Numbered from the stretch's first letter, positions 42,701-64,000 are shown. The stretch is 64,000 bases of DNA from Microthyrium microscopicum (GCA_010405405.1 MU004230.1:2638627-2702626); one strand, 5' to 3'. The notes: generated by a model from the letters alone, not told the origin. A program made the numbers and translations.

Positions 42701-44697
42701 ATGGCAAGTCTAATGCCTACTCCAACACTGGCGCCGGTCACCAACAGTACGATACCGATGTCAGGTCCTATTCCATCTGGTTTCTTTCTCAATCCCTTCC
42801 AACGGCACGCAGTACACGGTCAGCGGGATCTAACTATCATTGCCGTGGTTATAACGTACCTGATACCAGTTTTCCTGGTTCTCGTCAGGTATATAAGCTC
42901 AATCTGATCTACTATATGACTCTAACAAAGTGTAGAATATGTCACCCTCGAAGGGTAAGAAAATATGCGCCTCATGACTGGTTTCTCTTTGTATCATTGG
43001 TACGTATTCTACCGTCTCCTGAACTTTATGAAAGATGGGCATATCATTGAAGCGCAGTGACTGACTATGATCTTCTAGTTCTTTGCTTTTTGCACAACTG
43101 CCAGCTTGATCGCGTCAATAATATTGTCGGTTCGACCTGAGGTTGCCCGAGGTATCAAATTCATTTCTGAACAAGCCTTGAAGGCCAATATAGTTAGTAA
43201 TATGCAGTTTTATGCAACAGCGATGTAAGTCTAGTTCGTATCTATTCGGACGGATCATGTAGTCCTAACAGCGTCAACAGGTTCTTCAGGATGAGCTTGC
43301 TTTGCTTTGCCTGGAAGGAGTTTGCAAATAGAAAAGTCGACAAAAAGCGCATCGTCATATTCATACAAGTAGTTTTAATAGTGTTTCAAGTTGGAGTGAT
43401 AGCGCAAGGTATTGCCGCTATGGCGGTATGTATTCCTGGTATTGGAAGGATATTAACCTATGCTGACAGCTCTACTAGACCTCTGTGGCGAGTTGTAAGC
43501 CAATTTCATCAGCTTGGGATATACGGAAGTTCAAGAAAGATTGTGCAACCTACTCGCAAGTTCAAGTCATCAATGCTGGATTGGATGTATGGAAAGACGG
43601 CATCATTATGATCGGGTTCATTCTGTGCTATGCGCGGATTGGCATAAACCGGAGTATGCTTCGTAGGTTATAATCCATTATCATACCGCTATACATTACT
43701 AATCGAATTTGTAGCATTCAAACTTGCCATTCTTGGGGTTGGCATACTCTCTCTTACTGCTGGACTTGGAAGAGTATCATTTCTAGACGTTCACAAGGCG
43801 GAGATCTTTCCACCTGTCCGCCGCTTAGTTGCCCAACTTCTCGAAGCTCTTGAGATGAACCTGGGCATCGCAACAGCCGCTCTCCTTACCATCTGCACCG
43901 GCACCTATCGCAAACCTCATACTGGCGACGAATTCGAAATGGACCCCAATTGGCGAGGAGACGACTTCAAGAAGTGGGAGGACATTCCCGACCTCGTTTT
44001 CAAAACAGACCCTTCAATCGATATCAACACGCCCATCAAACGCGCCGGCAAGGTCGATCCTGTACAAGGCGCTATGCCCGTCTGGGATGATATTCCCGAT
44101 CTCGAATTCAAAACTGGCGACAGCATCAACGACTCCTCCAAACCATCCTCCCACGCTCCCTACCCTGCGGTCCAATCATTCCAAACAGCCGAGCGAATCT
44201 CAATCCCCATCTTTCCTCAACCACCTCAACAAGCCTTCATCCGCCCCGACACTCCCCCCGAAGGCATCGCCGGTCCCTCAGTCCTCCAACCCCGCCGACC
44301 ATCCATCCCACCGCCATTAAACTTCTCCCACCCATCACGCACACCCTCCACAACTCGAGCGCGCGGGCCTATCCCACCCATGCCATCTTTCAACAACGAA
44401 ATACTAGCTGAAACGCCCATAACACCCCACTATCCACGCACAAAATCGTATCCTGTATCTTTCAGTACTTCGCCATCGCTCTCGCCAGGGCCATTCAGTG
44501 ACTACTCAGAAGGAGAGGCTGATATGGCCATGATGCAAAGAGCAGCGCTGGTACGGATAGCGGATGCGAGAAGGGAGAGCACGAGTGTTAGTGCGGCGTC
44601 CCCTGCGGCGAGTTTAGGTGGTAATTCGATATGGGGAATCGCGGAGGCGTTGGAGGGGAGTCCACCGGCGACGCCGCAAAGAAAGGCTGGTCGTTAG
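42701..44697 (+). CDS. Multi-pass membrane protein with long Pro/Ser-rich tail, possibly PTH11/rhodopsin-domain-like
   Basis: About 5 introns. Hydrophobic exons with HDWFL, RMSLL, AWD..C, LDVW.D and LEMNLGI resemble the PTH11-like pattern. Confidence 0.5.
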
Positions 44698-45174
44698 GAC
44701 CTTTGTAATATTATCTTGATCAGATATAGCTGTACAATAATAAGTTCAGGCCAAAGATAAGTCCATGTTCCCTCAAAGATTTGTGAAGTATTGGTTTGAT
44801 TGTCATTATGGCATCTAGTGCGGCCTATGAAAGCTGGCTGGACAAAAGTAGATAGATTCAAAAGTAAGATCTTTTTCGATTGGCTGGTAGCTGCCTCCAG
44901 TGCTTTCTTATTGTCCTCATGTCCTGCCTCTCTAGCCTGAGGAGAATTATCCAGTAGGACCCCAAAGCGGAGCCAAAGGTTAAGTGTAGTTGGAAAGATG
45001 AGACTCTGCGTAGCTTACTTAGTGCGGCGCAGCAACTTGGACATTCTACCTGGGTAGCATCGCGGCCAAGCAAAACTACTAAAGGTTGTAAATGAGCAGA
45101 CATCCCTCTGCTATCCAAATCCCCCACTGAAAGCTTCAACAATATACATCGAAAGTCCTCTACATACTTGCACA

Positions 45175-45811
45175 ATGACTTCTTTAATGCTCTTCTGCAT
45201 CGATGAGGAGGCTAAAGCCGTGGGTTAAATCGTCCTCTCGTCTCGTAGCAACTTTCCATACTAACCTCATAGAGTTCGTCCCTACAGTCCTAACCACCAA
45301 AATATCAGTGAAATCTCCAGCTCCAATCTACTCTCTAGTGCAATCCAACGCACGACCAACCCACAAAGAGGAATTCAAACAAGAAACGGACCCGATCGAG
45401 CCCTTCGAAACCGATTTCATGGGCTCCTCAGTCCAAGACTGTCGTGACTGGACACTTGAGAACCAGAAAGCCGTCAACTTCCTCATGACAGATCTAATTG
45501 CCATCGTGGACGCTTGAAGCGCCAAGGACAAGACTATCCTTTTGTCATGGTATAGTCGTGATACTGCTCTCGGACCGGACTATGAAGATGATGAGTTTGA
45601 CGCGCTTCCAACAGAAATGAATGTCTGGTACGACTATAGAATTGATTGTAGGCAGTCGGAGGAGGCTACTGTGAGCTTGGTGATGCAGGAACCGTATGAG
45701 ACGTTGTATCCTACTTATTTTGGGCGGAGGGAGGCACTTACTGATGATAATGGCGTTTTTGATGTGGATAGAGCACATCGTTTCTTGCTCGGGGAAACTG
45801 CTGATAACTAG
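45175..45811 (+). pseudogene. Small acidic hypothetical gene with an in-frame TGA at 45515-45517
   Basis: MTSLMLFCIDEEAKA, intron ~45220-45274, then FVPTVL...IAIVDA*SAKDKTILLSWY... ORFs 45203-45517 and 45542-45811 share one frame. Confidence 0.6.
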
Positions 45812-47888
45812 AAAAGTTGAGTTTGAGGGTTCGATGTAATGAATAAGAGTCTATGGGACTTGGAATGGAAGGCCTGAGAGAGTTTATGAAATTGATTTCA
45901 TGTTTGGTCATCAAAGTAGAGGAATTGTCTTCTGGTCCATGTCGTAAGGAGGCAGCGCACCAGGATAGAATTTACAGTCTCCATTATTTCAAAGACCTGG
46001 GAACTAAGAGACAGCCGGACGCATCGTTCCGGGCCGGCTCTCGACTATATATGGATCGGATCCACATACAAATTTGGTGGAGAAATATATTGAGTTGAAG
46101 ATGTATGAAGTTGAATCAATGCGCGTGCAATCCAAATGTTGTTAGAAGGCTTGGAATTTATTCCTAATTAGTGCGCTTCTACACTTGCGAATGAAGATAC
46201 AGAAGGTTTCACCGATCTCGTGGGTGCTAGGATGAATGCTTTACTTTTAAAGCACTGGAGGGGAATCCCTGGACTAATACAACCAACGGTTTCTCCAAGC
46301 TCAGGATCAAGGGATTAGCCGACGACAAGGTGAATGGTGGGGACGTTGAGCAAAAGTCGATCAAAGGCAGCACATTCGACAATGAAAGGGTCATTGGGTG
46401 TAAACTTCCTTCTTATTTTGTGTGCCTCGAATATTGTCGGTTGCCAGCTGGCGGTTCGCTTCTGCTCGAATAATTGCTGCAAACTACTGATTTCCTGCAG
46501 TATACAGTAGTTCCGCACACTATCAGGTCGCCCCACGGTTAGGATGGTGTATATTGACAAGCTCATCCTTCAGTAATACTCTATTACTGTAGAGAGTGGC
46601 CAGCAAACTGGAGAATATGCAGGGGGTCCTTGTCCCTCGTGGTTGAAAATGGCCAACGCATCAACGAGTTGACGGCTGGTGCAGATGCACGAAAGAGCCT
46701 GAGGGCCGCATTCTTGTCCTGGGAATTGCAGCTTGGTGGAATTGGGGAGATTGCGTTTTCCAATTGACGCTTTCAAGAAATCTATTTTGTCTTTGAAGGT
46801 CGAATTGATATTGAATTGAATCAAGCGTTCAAATTTCAATCGCTTCAACCCCCGACGGCAGTGGCATCCAGGATCAGCTTCCGTCCACGGCAGCAAACAA
46901 GAAGCCGGGATTGGCATCGTTATTGCAAGTAGTTCCTGACAACCTGCGACTTTTCCAGTTGAATGGGGCAAGGCGCGAATCTAAAAGAGTCGGTCAAGTT
47001 TGGCAGGAGAAATACAGGTAGAGTAAGTAGAGGACTCAGGTACCCCAAGTTTCGTTTCCAACAAACCCTGGTTCATCGCATCCTACTCTGTCTCTTCAAC
47101 AACACAAACATCGACAACAATGCTCAAAATTTCATCCTCACCAAACCGCCTTCTTCGCCAACTGAGCATGCAGCATCGCTGATGCACTCGAAACTTCCCT
47201 GGTGAGTCATCATCTCTGCCCAACTCTCTTTGCACGACACACTGGGCCCATTGCCTGCGAGGCTGTACGCGTCGCAAAGCACTGCAGCGCCAATTGCTGC
47301 ACCACGGCTGGTTGAAAACGGCAAACAAAATACCTCGTACACAGCTGTGCAGGTAATGGGTCGGTTCGCCAGGTTTTAAACTGGGCAAAGTCCTGATATT
47401 GCTGAAGAAAAAGGCATTGGGTGCTGGGAGCTCTAGTAAACCAACCTCTTGAATTTGCTAGCAAGCTCTCAGCTTGGCCAGCCAGTGGCAGTCGGTCGTC
47501 CTTGCCCCTTCCAGCCACCCACTCTCCCAAAGCTCCCCAGCTCTCCCCAGCAAGCTTCCTTTCCTTCAATAACCGTCCATCTTGATACTAGAAACCATAC
47601 TATTATCATGCTCTGTGTGCTCTGTCGCTTCTGCCCGCCATCTCCATTACCGCGCTTACTACTACTCTTCTGCCCTGACATGGCCCAGAGCTAACATTAT
47701 TGTGTCCCAGGCCCTTTGTTTCTCTTTCCACGAGGCCATTGACTCTTTTGTGGTACATTCTCCAACCGTGTTACCGCGACAAGAGCACTACTTCTTCCTT
47801 CACATCTGTCGCACAGCACACTACTCTGGCTACACTTCCATTGTCGGTTTTGGCCTTGCGCCTAATACCATTGCATCAGTAGCCAACA

Positions 47889-50450
47889 TTGACGGAACCT
47901 CCCAATCCCCGGAGCCGTCCTCCTGCAGGCACGCTGTGGACTCCAACTCTTCCTGCTTCTAACGACGATCACGACGATACGACTTTTGAACCTTATTCTA
48001 CATCATTACAGCAACGTCTATATTCTGAGCCTTTGCTGGGTCCAAAGCTGTATTCTCGTCCATCAAGCTCCTCTGGGAGCAGTCACACACTTCGACGAAC
48101 TCCTAATTTCGACCAACAATCACGAACCCGGTCTACTTCTGTTACCTCAAGTCACCGGGCAACCCCTAGACCAGTAGATCAACAGGCACCAGGGCCACCC
48201 CGTCCCCAAGTCCGCTTTGTCGAACCGCTTGTACAAGTCAGAACACGGTCCTCTTCCACATCTGCACTTCCAGACTACTCTACAGTAGCTCGGCATCCAG
48301 CAACTCGAATATCTCGTAGAACAGCTTCCGCCATACTATCCGCGCTGGAGTCTCTCCGGGCTCCGTTTCCCTTCACCCCGGATCTGGTGGAGGAGAACGC
48401 AGAAATGTCGGACCTTGCTCCGGGCGTGGGCCCATCGAGTAGTGGACGCGCGACTAATGGCGGCGCAAGACCCCAAGGTGCTGTTCCAGTCTCTCAGGGC
48501 CAACAGGCGAAACTCACTACTCCAACGGACATTATGCGCCGGCGGCGTGAGCGCGAGGAAGCAAAACAGCAAGCAGAAGCTGCTGCTCAGGGACAAACTA
48601 CGCCTACGCCAGAACAGTCATCACAGCGCCTGCCAGAACGATTACGCACAGATGAGAGACCGGATATACCTATCGGACAACCGCGAACTCAGCAACCTCA
48701 TCGCAGAGCTACTAGCGAAGCTACCCCAGGTCAAGGGCCTCCGTCATATGCGCCCACTGGTCAGCCTTCAGCATCTGCTTCCGGTGCTGGAGGTTCGTTC
48801 AACCCTCGGACCGGCCAACCTACTTCACAATCGCAAGACCCTTCGATACCAGGCCGACCACGGGCCAACACTCAGGGATCTGGCCAATCTCGACCCGTTC
48901 CTCCCTCCAGTCAACAGCCAGGTACACAACGGTATTCTTCTCAGCAGCAAAACCCGTCCGCTAGTGGCCAACCTCAACCTCGTGTCTCTGCACAGTCTGG
49001 GCCTAGCGTACAGCGCCCTTCGGCACCAACTAGCTCTGCAGGTTCCATGCAACCCGCGATTTCAAACTTCCCTCATGCATTTGAACGATGGGAGACCCTT
49101 TCGTCACACTGGGAAGGTCTAACATCGTATTGGATTAGGCGATTAGAGCAAAATACCGAGGAGCTTCGACGCGAACCTCTTTTGCAACAGCTTTCACGGC
49201 AAGTTACGGATCTTTCAGCAGCTGGAGCAAATCTATTCCACGGCGTAGTTGAATTGCAAAAGCTTCGTGCTTCATCGGAGCGTAAGTTCCAACGATGGTT
49301 TTACGAAACTAGAAAAGAGACGGAACGACAACAAGAGGTTGCTGCTCAGTACGAACAAGCACTAGTTGGCGAACGACGAGCTCATGCCGCTGACCTGAGT
49401 CTCTTGCAAGGCGAAATTGACTCGTCACATTCAACTATTGGAAGACTTGAAAAACAGCTTTCAGAAATGCAGCGCGAGCAACATATATCCAAAGAGGAGG
49501 CGCGTCGTGCGTGGGAAGAGCTAGGTCGTCGTGAACAAGAAGCTCGAGATCAAGTCACTGCATTAAGAGAAGGGCAACCTATTCTAGTCGGTGGTATTCA
49601 AGTGTTCCCAACAGCTCATCAAACATCTGGCCGCCAACAGAGCATGTCTGGTGCCGCACCGGGAGGCTCTGGTCGTCCAACAACCCGAGATGGTTCCGGT
49701 GCTCCGCCAGCAATGTCTGGCGTACCGGAAGGTGCATATGGGCAACCAATTCTTCAAGGCTCTCCAACACATACTGATCCATTCACGGAGCATGGCGGTA
49801 TGCCACGTACCCAGCCATCAGCCACCAACGGGATGCATACTTCAGCACCCGAAGCTTTTGCCTCGCCTTCAGGAGGAGCAGGGTTCTACCAACAACCCAC
49901 TTCTTACCTCCATGGTGCGCCAGGCCACAGAGTGACAGCACCGGGTACTGAAGAAACCTTTTCCTCAGATCACGACGAAGACGATTATGAATACGACGAA
50001 CACGGTCGCCCTCGAACCGACGTCCACGGAAATCCAATTGTCTGGCGCCGCGGCCACCCAATCCTCGCTGATGACGACGATGAGGATACTGCAGACGACA
50101 TTGAGCACGAGCGAGCAATGCGCGCCAAATACGGCCCAAACACCTCCACAGCCGTCTCCTATCCACAAGTACCAGCACCCACTTCCGCTCGCATCAACCC
50201 AGTTTCCGCGCCTACTACAGCGGGTGCCGTTAGTGTTGGGCCAAGTCACCTGCACCCCGCAACTGCTGGTGGAGCAGGCTTTGGCGCGCCCGTTGACTAT
50301 GAAGGCGAAGGCTATGAGGACTCTGACTTCGACGTCAACCAATATCCATCGCGCCTAAGCATAGTGGACGAGGTTGATGAGGAGGCGAGTCGAGCAAGTG
50401 AGATTAGCGGTCGTAGTGGACGGCATACACCGCGTCAACCACCATTCTAG
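47889..50450 (+). CDS. Hypothetical coiled-coil protein; first AUG at 48405, open frame extends to a TTG at 47889
   Basis: 853-codon ORF with a helical core (FPHAFERWETLSSHWEGLTSYWIRRLE...AAGANLFHGVVELQKLRASSERKFQRWF) flanked by low-complexity regions. Confidence 0.8.
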   Translation: MTEPPNPRSRPPAGTLWTPTLPASNDDHDDTTFEPYSTSLQQRLYSEPLLGPKLYSRPSSSSGSSHTLRRTPNFDQQSRTRSTSVTSSHRATPRPVDQQAPGPPRPQVRFVEPLVQVRTRSSSTSALPDYSTVARHPATRISRRTASAILSALESLRAPFPFTPDLVEENAEMSDLAPGVGPSSSGRATNGGARPQGAVPVSQGQQAKLTTPTDIMRRRREREEAKQQAEAAAQGQTTPTPEQSSQRLPERLRTDERPDIPIGQPRTQQPHRRATSEATPGQGPPSYAPTGQPSASASGAGGSFNPRTGQPTSQSQDPSIPGRPRANTQGSGQSRPVPPSSQQPGTQRYSSQQQNPSASGQPQPRVSAQSGPSVQRPSAPTSSAGSMQPAISNFPHAFERWETLSSHWEGLTSYWIRRLEQNTEELRREPLLQQLSRQVTDLSAAGANLFHGVVELQKLRASSERKFQRWFYETRKETERQQEVAAQYEQALVGERRAHAADLSLLQGEIDSSHSTIGRLEKQLSEMQREQHISKEEARRAWEELGRREQEARDQVTALREGQPILVGGIQVFPTAHQTSGRQQSMSGAAPGGSGRPTTRDGSGAPPAMSGVPEGAYGQPILQGSPTHTDPFTEHGGMPRTQPSATNGMHTSAPEAFASPSGGAGFYQQPTSYLHGAPGHRVTAPGTEETFSSDHDEDDYEYDEHGRPRTDVHGNPIVWRRGHPILADDDDEDTADDIEHERAMRAKYGPNTSTAVSYPQVPAPTSARINPVSAPTTAGAVSVGPSHLHPATAGGAGFGAPVDYEGEGYEDSDFDVNQYPSRLSIVDEVDEEASRASEISGRSGRHTPRQPPF

Positions 50451-51150
50451 CAGGATTATTGTACGGGCTGATTAATCTGTGGCATCATCATCACATTCCA
50501 ACGCACTACATCCAATCCACTTAGTCTCCGTCACGCCTTTCTCCTTTGGCCTTCTACATGCATATATGCATTTGCTGGATGCATTCTGTTCATTAATTGC
50601 ATTATTTCTTTGGCTTTTGGTCTGCTTTTCCGTTGCAGCTCTTGCCGGATACCCCCTTTGTTGTTTTGTTTTGGATTCTTCTTCATTCCTGCTTTGTTGA
50701 TTTATACATAGCATTGAAAGTCCTGTTCTCATGTTATTTCTATATATACAGTTCAATTATATCATCAGCCAGCATATAGCTTGGTTTGTTCCGGTTTTTC
50801 TTATCATCCATTCTTCTATCAGTAGTTGTCCACTGTCGATAAGGAATATTTGCTTCTGTTTAGATTTCTTACTACCAAGCTTCTTTACATGTATGAGTAT
50901 TGTTAATATGGTACGGTGTAAAAAGTTCTGAGCTAGAGTTTTGCTATGAGAAGCATTTTGATGGCTGCATGGTATGGATTGGGCGGCGGAAGCGTTTGCT
51001 TCTTGGTTTTGGGCTGGATATATAGGAGGATAATAGAATAATATTACTAGATCACGACGGAGAAGTGCGCCAGTTGTCAGCATGTTCGATGTGCTGGAGT
51101 TTAGACTGCGATAGACATCTTGTAGTGGATGCCAATAGAGTACTGGGAAG

Positions 51151-60819: not shown

Positions 60820-62482
60820 GTAAATGGGTATTATTACGTAGGAATAAACAACGTTATACAAATTTTCCCTATACTCATTTTTAGATTGCGATCTAGTGTA
60901 TTTTAACTATAATTTTATTAAATAATATCTAAAATAGACTCCCTTTAAGAAGAATTAACTATAATAATTACTATAGTAGTAGTACTATTAATATTATATA
61001 TTGCTATAGAAGAAGAGCTTTAAGAATAACATTATAGGCCTTTACTAGAATATATTTACTATAATTAGAATCTAGAAAATAGATCTAATTGCCTAATAGT
61101 AGTAGAATATTAGTAACTGCTTTAAATTAGTAGAGGATAATATCTGTAGTACTAATTAGTATATAATAGATTTAAGAAGCATAAAATCCTAGAGCTAGTA
61201 GAGCTGTTTGATCTTAAGAATCTTCCCTTATCTAATTGTTTAAAGCTACTATAGAAAGGGCCCTTTCTACTTTATATAGTATTATATAGGTTATTAAAAA
61301 TCTATACTTATGACGACATCTATTAGTACTTTAGTAGAAGTGCTATATATTTAAAGAAGTGCTTTAATAGGACTATAACTTATCTTAATTAAAGATATAC
61401 TAATACTCTACTAAGATTCTACTTATTATTAAATTTATAATAGATCTATGTCTATAGCAAGATAATTAATAGGGCTAGTAGTAGTAATATATACTAGGGT
61501 TATATTAACGATACGTATATTAACGTTTATAGGCTAATAGGTTATATCTAAAGGTTATTATATTTTAGATATAATAAAGTATATTATATTAAACACTAGG
61601 TAGTTTGTTGCCCTAACGGATTAATAATAGCAATAGATTTATTACATCTAGGAGCTTTAAATAATCTAAGAATATTATTAACGTTAGGTCTTAAAGAATA
61701 ACTTTAAATAGTTAGTATTAATTCTATCTAGATATAAATATAACTTACCTCTTTAAATATTTAATAGGGGCTAAAAACTACTACTATATAGCAATGTAGC
61801 ATATCTAAATAATAACCTAATAATGTCTCTCTATATAGGAATTCTTATACTAGTATAGAGAGCGTAGAATAAGAAAATATTAAAATACTACATATATATA
61901 AAATAGGTATTTAGCAATATAAAAGCCTTATTTAAGGAAGAGACATCTAATTTTAAGTTAGGCCTATAGATAGGATTAATACTAGTTAGAGCGTATATAG
62001 TAGTATTATTCTTACTTACTAACTACTATACTTATTATTATAGAAATATTATTTCTACACGCTTTAGGGTAAATCTACTAACTATTAATAAATATCTTAA
62101 TCCTAGTAGTATATTTAATAGTAGGATACTATTAGATTATTTATAAGAAGATAATTTAAATAGTATAGAATAGTTATAGTAGTTATTAAAAAAGTAGATA
62201 TTACGGAGTAAAGTTAGATATTCTTACTAAAGGAGGGGAAGTTAATAGGGTAGGGTTAGCTAATTATTTAACCTTTCTGTGCACTTTTAAAGCTTTTAGT
62301 ATCTATCGTAATATTTCTATAAAAACTAGATTCTACCTTTACTACTAATTTATATAAGAAACACTAGCTTAACCTTTATAATTATAATTAACCTAAAGAC
62401 TTCCTTAATAACTCCTTTATCTCTATTATCTCTAAGCAAGCTACCTTTACTTCTTTCCTTAATTCTACAACTTTACTTCCTT

Positions 62483-62514
<32 letters not shown>

Positions 62515-64000
62515 ATTCTACTACTAATAACTATATTATCTTAAGTTCTAGACCTATTTAAATTAAGACGTTCTAACTATTAAATTAAGCTATTATAAAT
62601 ACTTATAATTCTATTAACCCTAGATGTTGTAATGATTCCTTACAATGCTGTGTCGAAAGAGATCTTAGTGTTGTAAGATCACGCGCTAGACCCAGAGAAG
62701 GTTAGCGCGTCTAAGGTTCTACTAAGCGAACTTACTTTCCTTATAGATCCGTAGTGGTTCTAGATCTTTTTCCTCTCTCCTTTGTACGTAGATTCTTAAA
62801 TACTAGCTAATTATCTACTTACTTTAAGTCCTATTGCTTATTATATAATCTACGTACTATAAAACTGTTACGCGCTTATATTACGTATTAAAAAGCTTTA
62901 AATTAGCGTAGGTAATATTCTATTGCTCTCTATATAGGTAATATTCTATTGTACTAAATGCGTAGAACTCTAAAATTTTAAGCCCTACTCTAAAATCTAA
63001 TAACACTATAGCTAATTAGCGTATTAGGATTTCCTAACACTAGTTGTCCTAATTAGCGTTAGACTAATAAAAAGGTTTAAGCTTTAATTACCCCTCGATT
63101 GCTTATGTATAGGAATACTAAATTTGTCCTCCTTACTACAATCCCTCTAAACACTACCTTTAAACTAAAATTATTCTTAACTTTAATCTCTTTTATAACG
63201 CTCGTTAATTAAAGACTCTAAAAGCTAGCAAGAAATCTATTGCTATTATAAGTAATTAAAACCTTTTACTACCTTAGGGTAAATGTAGAATAAATAGTTA
63301 TCTATACTAATTTCCTTTACTCTAGCATAAGGCTAATTAGCCTAATTATCATTAATTCCTATCTTCTTTACATTACTTATTAATTTTAGGTTACTCTTCT
63401 ACTATGCTAGATATTAGCTAGTTAGATACTTAGGATACTATATAGATCTCACAATCTATAGAGAAGCTACCTATACATAACTAGGAACTATAGAAATTAT
63501 TAGCAAACTTTAATAAAGATAATAACGATTAGTTGCTTAGACTATTATAAAAAGAAGGCAAAGGTAAAGCCCTAATCTAAAATGATGAAGAATCTAGAAG
63601 TAAAGAGGACGATGAAGTTACTAAGATCTATAGAATCTTTAAAGATAACACAAGTTTACTATAAGAGATTATTAAATAATTAGCAACTATATAGAAGAAC
63701 CTAAAATTAGTAGACGTTCTTCTAATATTTAAGAGCTACTATATAGTTACTATAGACTTAAACTATATTATTAATCTCCTAGTAGATTATAAACTATTAT
63801 AATTTTAAGCTATAGCGCGCCGCGTAGCGCCTAAGAAAGAAGGCTAGAAGTTAGAGCTTACCCTACTAATAGCACAAAAGACTTTAAATAATTTAGAACT
63901 ACTATATTACAATTACTTTATTATCTAATTTAGCTAAGGCCTTACCTATACTCTAAAAGGCAGCCTAGACCTAGATAAGTTTATTATAATATTATTTAAC
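60820..64000. mobile_element. RIP-degraded transposable element cluster (probably LTR retroelement remnants)
   Basis: Abrupt switch to very AT-rich DNA saturated with TpA/TAG/TAA and depleted of CpA/TpG. No ORF >=60 aa in the track. LTR-like starts TGTTG (62625) and TGTTACG (~62865). Confidence 0.8.
62483..62512. repeat. (TAC/CTA)n microsatellite inside the RIP region
   Basis: About 10 perfect copies read directly. Confidence 0.9.

Follow-up and report, generated by a model that had tools for sequence, protein, structure and literature searches.

We investigated a protein-coding gene of the fungus Microthyrium microscopicum, located in a 64,000-nucleotide (nt) stretch of its genome (GCA_010405405.1 MU004230.1:2638627-2702626; hereafter the window, with all positions counted from its first letter), whose translation is likely to start not only at the annotated AUG at position 48405 but also at near-cognate codons roughly 0.5 kb upstream. 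Initiation at these codons, with leaky scanning of the remaining ribosomes to the AUG, would give proteins of 853 and 838 amino acids (aa) besides one of 681 aa, and the evidence for this reading comes mainly from the comparison of orthologous loci. The following features of the window are concerned.

48405 to 50450, + strand: database coding sequence, 681 codons plus stop, readable with no need for an intron
47683 to 48404, + strand: ATG-free stretch, 722 nt with zero ATG in all three + frames, made up of the presumed 5' leader (47683-47888) and the putative coding extension
47880 to 47882, + strand: in-frame TAG, which shuts frame 0 two codons ahead of site A
47889 to 47891, + strand: site A, TTG in the context ccaacaTTGacg, with A at -3; candidate start of the 853-aa protein
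47934 to 47936, + strand: site B, CTG in the context ggcacgCTGtgg, with A at -3; candidate start of the 838-aa protein
47889 to 48404, + strand: N-terminal extension, 172 codons from site A and 157 from site B
48405 to 48407, + strand: conserved AUG, residue 175 in stop-to-stop numbering, ATG in 43/43 representative orthologues (defined below), start of the 681-aa model

In a list of all ATGs of the window, those on the + strand that flank the ATG-free stretch lie at 47356, 47608 and 47680 on its 5' side and at 48405 and 48457 on its 3' side. The ATG-to-ATG spacing from 47680 to 48405 is 725 nt, the second longest among the 1126 gaps of the window, and outside the AT-rich tail beyond 61 kb it ranks longest, with a runner-up of 410. 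At the window mean of 17.6 ATG per kb, about 12.7 ATGs would be expected in the 722 nt, and the local dinucleotide content predicts 5.1, with a probability of about 0.006 of finding none; CAT, the reverse complement of ATG, is present in 14 copies within the same stretch. Judged on the window alone, the gap is a moderately significant signal, and the family-wide data presented below make it decisive. Frame 0 is open from 47883, just 3' of the TAG at 47880-82, to 50450 (855 codons), of which 174 open codons lie between 47883 and the ATG at 48405. A first-pass annotation of the window had described an ATG desert from 47711 to 48405 where roughly ten ATGs would be expected, a frame open from 47883, and near-cognate codons within 'ACA TTG ACG' and 'ACG CTG'. 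The desert is real and slightly longer than described, as it starts after 47680, the expectation was a fair one, and the frame and the codons (TTG at 47889-91, ACG CTG at 47931-36) are where it had placed them; the two peptides that it quoted, RRTASAILSALESLRAPFPFTPDLVEENAE and RPQVRF, both occur in the translation.

At the far end of the window, 61000-64000 forms an AT-rich block (24-28% GC, TA-rich, with an ACT microsatellite near 62480-62515) that holds the longest ATG gap of the window (61823-62624) as well as a CAT gap of 1382 nt (61944-63326). These long ATG and CAT gaps at 61.8-63.3 kb, lying in TA-rich DNA of 24-28% GC, were set apart as a different phenomenon; the block looks like degraded repeat DNA of the repeat-induced-point-mutation type, unrelated to the extension.

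Orthologous loci were collected by a scan of metagenome contigs in which 286 stretches matched and 193 encode a relative, the best 80 of these 193 being kept as loci (L001-L080). A tblastn match to the first 260 residues was obtained for 76/80 loci. Fifty-seven distinct sequences, the window included, had at least 450 nt 5' of the conserved Met, and in 53 the extension frame was open over at least 130 codons; the four dropped at this step were L003, L006 and L051, with a short intron after 'SLQLRQ', and L073, with an in-frame stop. Forty-three representatives that are less than 90% identical formed the set for the ATG, codon and site counts given below. The short intron inside the extension after 'SLQLRQ' was seen in the Pleosporales-like loci L003, L006, L045 and L051, and the window has no such intron; L045 was kept among the representatives, and its upstream frame is not meaningful because the same intron is present.

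Between the upstream stop (or the end of the locus or contig) and the conserved Met, no in-frame ATG was found in any of the 76 loci (76/76). Among the representatives, in-frame ATGs number 0 in 23,628 nt of extension versus 4.68 per kb in the downstream coding sequence. Out-of-frame ATGs in the extension amount to 19 observed versus 133±8.3 expected, and downstream they occur at 8.56 per kb; the expectation comes from 1000 synonymous resamplings that kept the protein sequence and the gene's own codon usage, the lowest of which gave 110. The depletion is incomplete, with 1-2 out-of-frame ATGs retained in 17/43 representatives. The same tendency can be read from synonymous codons. Asn before a codon starting with G is encoded by AAT versus AAC 4/81 times in the extension, 57/12 times in the first 30 codons after the AUG and 83/82 times in the rest, and the counts for Asn before other codons are 65/89, 8/6 and 180/238, respectively. 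For Asp, His or Tyr before G, the xAT/xAC counts in these three regions are 13/193, 6/1 and 507/463.

In a metagene of the 43 sequences positioned relative to the AUG, ATG density is 14-17 per kb beyond -1100, 5-8 from -1000 to -600, 0-0.5 from -600 to -200, and 1-2 in the last 200 nt, followed by 17-21 in the first 200 nt after the AUG, and the ATG-free zone of the family stops exactly at this universally conserved codon. CAT density stays at a steady 12-20 per kb through the zone, and the depletion of ATG is therefore strand-specific and word-specific. Taken across the family, these counts indicate that ATG is selected against, only upstream of the conserved AUG and partly via synonymous codon choice. 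The absence of ATG from the orthologous DNA upstream of the AUG, which the first-pass annotation had named as a point to check along with codon-level conservation, thus holds in all 76 loci for the reading frame, and out of frame in the strong reduction from 133 to 19.

The extension frame is open over 107-242 codons in the 72/76 loci that reach an upstream in-frame stop, two of which (L006 and L073) carry internal stops, and in the remaining 4/76 the contig ends first. The encoded sequence, which contains no Met and is mostly disordered, can be aligned with orthologues that represent four classes of filamentous ascomycetes; named database matches include Dothideomycetes, lichen-forming fungi, Sordariomycetes, Penicillium and Aspergillus. 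When 21 sequences are aligned, nine positions of the extension do not vary, and neither does the Met at 48405. Conserved blocks of the extension comprise N-D-x-H-D, SLQQRQQ, SRPSSSSGS and LRRTPN, as well as the block next to the AUG, HPALRISRRTASAIL.ALE..R.P.PFTPDL.EENA.M (also given as HPxxRISRRTASAIL.ALE..R.PFPFTPDL.EENA). Substitution patterns were obtained from seven groups of related loci as mismatch rates by codon phase 1/2/3. In the 120 nt 5' of site A these rates are 0.36/0.34/0.32, with 39 gaps that are a multiple of 3 and 140 others; from site A to site B they are 0.21/0.25/0.31 (gaps 7 and 13), and from site B to +150 nt 0.20/0.18/0.32 (gaps 52 and 30). The pattern points clearly to coding from site B onward and weakly to coding between sites A and B. 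The alignment and the codon-phase mismatch rates bear out codon-by-codon conservation among orthologues and indicate that the extension evolves as protein-coding sequence.

Sites A and B were counted in a protein-guided codon alignment, in which they occupy columns 59 and 74. The raw counts at the site A column are TTG 27, CTG 3 and GTG 1 of 39 (near-cognate NTG in 31/39), and those at the site B column CTG 15, GTG 14, TTG 3 and ATA 3 of 42 (NTG in 32/42, plus the 3 ATA). After curation of obvious misalignments, NTG is found in 34/43 representatives at site A, and at site B in 38, with ATA in 3, none in 1 (L079) and 1 not assessable (L045). The first base of the NTG columns drifts among C, G and T. 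A purine stands at -3 in 30/31 cases at site A and 35/35 at site B, versus 51% of 159 other in-frame NTGs in the extension, and the context of site A is further conserved with TTC at -6 to -4 and C at -2. As a control, 11 other conserved Leu/Val/Ile columns of the extension were inspected, of which nine have 0-12% NTG, one 16%, and one near the AUG 33%. In most lineages, as read by eye, about 13 codons separate site B from the [H/Y]-D that is conserved in the acidic motif further 3'. In many lineages an in-frame stop is found 2-7 codons 5' of site A or B, the TAG at 47880 of the window included, and among orthologues the stop is separated from site A by 2 to 50 codons. Both codons named in the first-pass annotation (TTG 47889 and CTG 47934) sit on the two columns in which CTG/GTG/TTG are enriched and a purine stands at -3. 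In the alignment these near-cognate codons are positionally conserved, have a favourable context and mark the 5' border of conserved coding sequence.

According to the mechanism that we propose, scanning 43S complexes would meet no AUG over at least the last 200 nt of the leader, and a fraction of them would initiate with initiator methionyl-tRNA (Met-tRNAi) at TTG 47889 (site A) and/or CTG 47934 (site B), both in good context; site B would be used, and in most lineages site A also. Initiation at these sites would yield the long proteoforms of 853 and 838 aa. The remaining complexes would scan about 0.5 kb held free of AUG in all three frames by selection and would initiate at the in-frame, universally conserved AUG at 48405, the first that they meet, to give a 681-aa proteoform without the Ser-rich and basic motifs and without a helix predicted at residues 145-159. 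The comparative tests support the earlier proposal of an AUG-free extension with a near-cognate start and leaky scanning to produce two isoforms; that initiation takes place at these codons, that long and short forms accumulate, and that their ratio responds to stringency (eIF1/eIF5/eIF2 status) is what we infer from them.

The public gene models of the family are consistent with such an origin. The database protein of the window itself (P0003, 681 aa, 100% identical) begins at the ATG at 48405 and spans 80% of the 855-codon frame, while many homologues in the protein database cover 95-98% of that frame; the 681-aa model lacks the extension and is, by this comparison, truncated. Among the public models of Sordariales, Penicillium and Aspergillus (P0123-P0362), some likewise begin at the conserved Met (about 510-630 aa). 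Others have N-termini that are unrelated even between sister species and are joined to the conserved block at differing points. Where a caller permits GTG or TTG as a start, the model begins exactly at site A or B and its first residue is written 'M' or even 'V'. A systematic annotation artefact, in which ATG starts are forced on a non-AUG gene, would look like this; both long and short proteins are probably made from the gene, and its annotation is probably wrong in many genomes.

Several observations weigh against initiation at the near-cognate codons with leaky scanning to the AUG. The context of the AUG is poor, with a pyrimidine at -3 in 37/43 representatives (the window has G), which is unexpected for a default start. 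In L073 the extension is interrupted by an in-frame stop at a position where its close relative L077 has Gln; this stop may reflect an error in sequencing, variation among strains or loss of the long form in this lineage. Site A is weaker than site B, with weak codon periodicity and mixed gaps between the two, and L041, L050, L076 and L077 cannot use site A because an in-frame stop lies between A and B, 3-7 codons before site B. A hairpin 3' of the NTG, which would favour non-AUG initiation, was looked for and no trend was found across the family: the structure of the 50 nt after site A has a median percentile of 0.45 relative to its own extension and that after site B 0.90 (less structured), and the site A of the window, at the 6th percentile, is alone in this among the family. 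The long form could moreover be rare, because near-cognate initiation in cpc-1, the GCN4 homologue of Pezizomycotina, reaches <1% of the main-AUG reporter activity in vivo (PMC5487733). Lastly, one in-frame combination of an upstream exon with the extension can be drawn by eye, from ATG 47356 plus G through a donor GTCGGT to an acceptor CAG ending at 47928 and into ACG CTG.

This combination is an instance of the alternative that the long protein starts at an ordinary ATG in a small exon further upstream, which splicing joins to frame 0 close to site A or B, the NTGs being plain Leu/Val codons. Eukaryotic gene callers build models of this kind in many relatives, and splice-like motifs are present in the window (GTGAGT at 47203, GCTAAC..CAG with its last base at 47710, CTAAT..CAG/TAG in 47864-47882, and a pyrimidine tract with a CAG ending at 47928). 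Penicillium-like loci in addition share an upstream ATG about 300 nt before site B, with 'ag' right before the GTG. The combination from ATG 47356 needs, however, a weak donor and a 569-nt intron, and the other joins followed by eye, from ATG 47121, 47183, 47608 or 47680 to the acceptors 47710, 47879 and 47882 and from ATG 47356 to 47879 or 47882, run into stops. Ahead of sites A and B there is no conserved AG at a fixed position, the ATG exons predicted in close relatives bear no relation to each other, and the conserved Penicillium ATG opens an upstream open reading frame (uORF) of about 20 codons with its own stop, followed by a non-consensus donor. Furthermore, an upstream ATG start provides no reason to purge out-of-frame ATGs about 7-fold over 0.5 kb via synonymous codons, and it leaves the C/G/T-TG pattern and the 97-100% purine at -3 unexplained, and we regard this alternative as unlikely. 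A readthrough variant was also considered, in which ATG 47183, spliced from 47203 to 47710 as drawn by eye, leads into a frame-0 uORF ending at TAG 47880; stop-codon readthrough was judged unlikely, as the spacing between the stop and site A is not constant and the sequence 5' of site A evolves as non-coding.

In two further alternatives a single protein form matters. If this were the long NTG-initiated protein, the AUG at 48405 would be an internal Met that, as the first AUG, acts as a harmless in-frame sink for ribosomes missing the NTGs, with no functional short isoform. The weak context of the AUG is in keeping with this, the Met lies in the conserved block EENAxMSDL and is possibly conserved as a residue, and avoidance of out-of-frame AUGs further downstream would likewise be expected of genes that start solely at non-AUG codons. 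Yet the ATG-free zone ends precisely at this AUG and ATG density peaks just after it, and ATG is kept in all representatives at this position while Met is otherwise missing from the 23.6 kb of extension; a strictly conserved in-frame first AUG has the look of a used start, and sequence alone cannot split 'used' from 'functional'. We consider this alternative improbable. Conversely, the upstream stretch could be an untranslated 5' leader whose ATG-free zone keeps uORFs out, with only the 681-aa protein being made, as would agree with the start of the database model and with leaders being often AUG-poor. A non-coding leader would, however, neither hold one frame open, as is seen over 107-242 codons in 72/76 loci (L006 and L073 with internal stops), nor conserve peptide motifs, and the amino-acid conservation across fungal classes, invariant residues included, the third-position-biased substitutions and the indels that are mostly multiples of 3 make this explanation very improbable.

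Within dual initiation from the near-cognate codons and the AUG, the sequence just after the AUG may have a role of its own.

48457 to 49122, + strand: overlapping +1-frame open reading frame (ORF) of 221 codons, starting at the first ATG after the AUG, within AAT-GGC (Asn192-Gly193)

In 33/43 representatives the ATG that next follows the AUG lies in the +1 frame at a conserved Asn-Gly, and these first ATGs open ORFs of 10-107 codons (221 in the window). One or two such +1-frame ATGs are found 22-61 nt 3' of the AUG and result from the preference for AAT before G in this region (57 AAT versus 12 AAC). They are possibly a selected trap for ribosomes leaking past the AUG, or a small overlapping ORF. 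More speculatively, the tandem strong-context NTGs, the AUG-free track of about 0.5 kb, the weak-context in-frame AUG and the selected +1-frame AUG traps might together form a three-tier device, shared by filamentous ascomycetes, in which the ratio of long to short to no product would report start-codon stringency (eIF1/eIF5/eIF2 state), an arrangement that we think doubtful. Were it true, the unnamed protein would act as a switch set by translation, and not as the product of a simple two-isoform gene.

The leader region upstream of the near-cognate sites contains two further features.

47608 to 47694, + strand: candidate uORF with ATG 47608 and the same-frame ATG 47680 (28 or 4 codons, TAA at 47692-94), at the 5' edge of the ATG-free zone
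47690 to 47710, + strand: GCTAAC (47690-95) followed by CAG (ending at 47710), resembling a branch point and acceptor by motif match only, and taken in the first-pass annotation for a clear intron acceptor

In the Penicillium-like loci L024, L070, L074 and L075, an upstream ATG and its flanking nucleotides are conserved about 300 nt 5' of site B and open a uORF of about 20 codons in L074 and L024 ('M.PETRL...'), 36 in L075 and 8 in L070. Gene callers convert the ATG of this Penicillium-like uORF into a fake first exon. The 28-codon uORF candidate of the window lies at a similar distance. Given the Penicillium-like uORF and the window's candidate at 47608-47694, the leader may include a uORF, as that of cpc-1 does. 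Between the + strand ORF at 43648-44697 and the gene with the extension, about 3.2 kb (44700-47880) is devoid of ORFs of at least 140 codons, and this interval leaves room for a long leader or an intron in the 5' untranslated region (GTGAGT at 47203; GCTAAC..CAG at 47690-47710). The one sequencing run found to contain the locus yields contigs for 46000-47332 and 47591-51000, intergenic DNA included and with no joints; it looks like genomic DNA and is silent on transcription and splicing.

The structure of the protein was modelled with AlphaFold2 on the 21-sequence alignment, with a mean predicted local distance difference test (pLDDT) of 50, and two helical regions stand out.

48315 to 48359, + strand: predicted helix, residues 145-159 (stop-to-stop numbering), ASAILSALESLRAPF, pLDDT about 65
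49068 to 49568, + strand: conserved helical core, residues 396-562, FPHAFERWETLSSHWEGLTSYWIRRLE..., with predicted helices 396-423 and 431-562

Helix 145-159, predicted with modest confidence, is the sole helix in the extension, the rest of which has a pLDDT <50, and its region is the best-conserved block of the extension in the same alignment. The helical core 396-562 is the most conserved part of the family, with a pLDDT >90 over most of its length. A Pfam search gave only Sec10_N at 15 bits, under the cut-off of 27.4, a PDB search had no significant match (top hit E = 0.11), and a search of the ESM Atlas returned no usable match. Orthologues listed for Aspergillus, Penicillium, Podospora and Fusarium are 'hypothetical proteins', and among the 360 database proteins listed the source names are almost all 'hypothetical' or 'uncharacterized', with many nameless and few bearing transferred names. 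No paper on this protein family was found in the literature, a weak negative as the family has no name to search by. The gene product is best explained as an uncharacterised, filamentous-ascomycete-specific protein that is mostly disordered with a long helical core. The first-pass annotation had also seen an RVxF-like motif in RPQVRF of the extension. The RVxF motif, which mediates docking to protein phosphatase 1 (PP1), has the pattern [RK]-x(0,1)-[VI]-{P}-[FW]; RPQVRF of the window fails this canonical pattern, which occurs anywhere in the extension in only 11/43 representatives, and [VI]RF is present in 16/43. RVxF-mediated PP1 docking was rejected as a family trait on these counts.

The closest known parallel is found in the same subphylum, where cpc-1 of Pezizomycotina has conserved N-terminal extensions initiated at near-cognate codons (Ivanov et al. 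2017, mBio, PMC5487733). Like the present gene, cpc-1 has a long extension (about 180 aa) 5' of the annotated AUG with no in-frame AUG and with amino-acid conservation, as well as several positionally conserved near-cognate codons with drifting identity (CUG/UUG, AUU/AUC/AUA) and a good context that has a purine at -3. The cpc-1 leader differs in having two AUG uORFs, and its extension bypasses an inhibitory uORF, whereas here the whole 0.6 kb to the AUG is AUG-free in all frames, which fits plain leaky scanning. The conserved codons here are also both of the NTG type, the protein is not a basic leucine zipper (bZIP) factor, and the family is known from comparative data, in contrast to the in vitro and ribosome-profiling support described for cpc-1. 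In mammals, non-AUG extensions such as the AUU/CUG proteoforms of PTEN (PMC4892431; reviewed in PMC9082881) are reported to have been detected with comparative genomics by the same logic, from coding conservation 5' of the annotated AUG together with a near-cognate codon that is conserved and in good context, and to be leaky-scanning proteoforms. They belong to another kingdom and to unrelated genes. We know of no mammalian case in which ATG has been purged in all frames over 0.5 kb via synonymous codons.

In yeast, the classic examples of near-cognate starts are ALA1 with ACG and GRS1 with UUG. Yeast dual-start genes are reported to produce two isoforms from one mRNA with an upstream near-cognate codon and a downstream AUG (PMC6582344). 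Their extensions are short mitochondrial presequences, unlike the 157-172 residues here, which are Ser/Pro/Arg-rich and disordered and have their own conserved motifs. Against this background, strong comparative evidence suggests that the extension is a new, family-wide case of a known type of translational feature.

If confirmed, the gene would to our knowledge belong to the better-supported comparative examples of fungal non-AUG initiation, with selection evident from the choice among synonymous codons in at least four classes. It would also expose an annotation error by which models are cut to an internal Met (681 aa here) or given invented ATG micro-exons. The choice of xAT before G, compared between the sequence upstream and downstream of the AUG, would offer a simple statistic for finding leaky-scanning genes.

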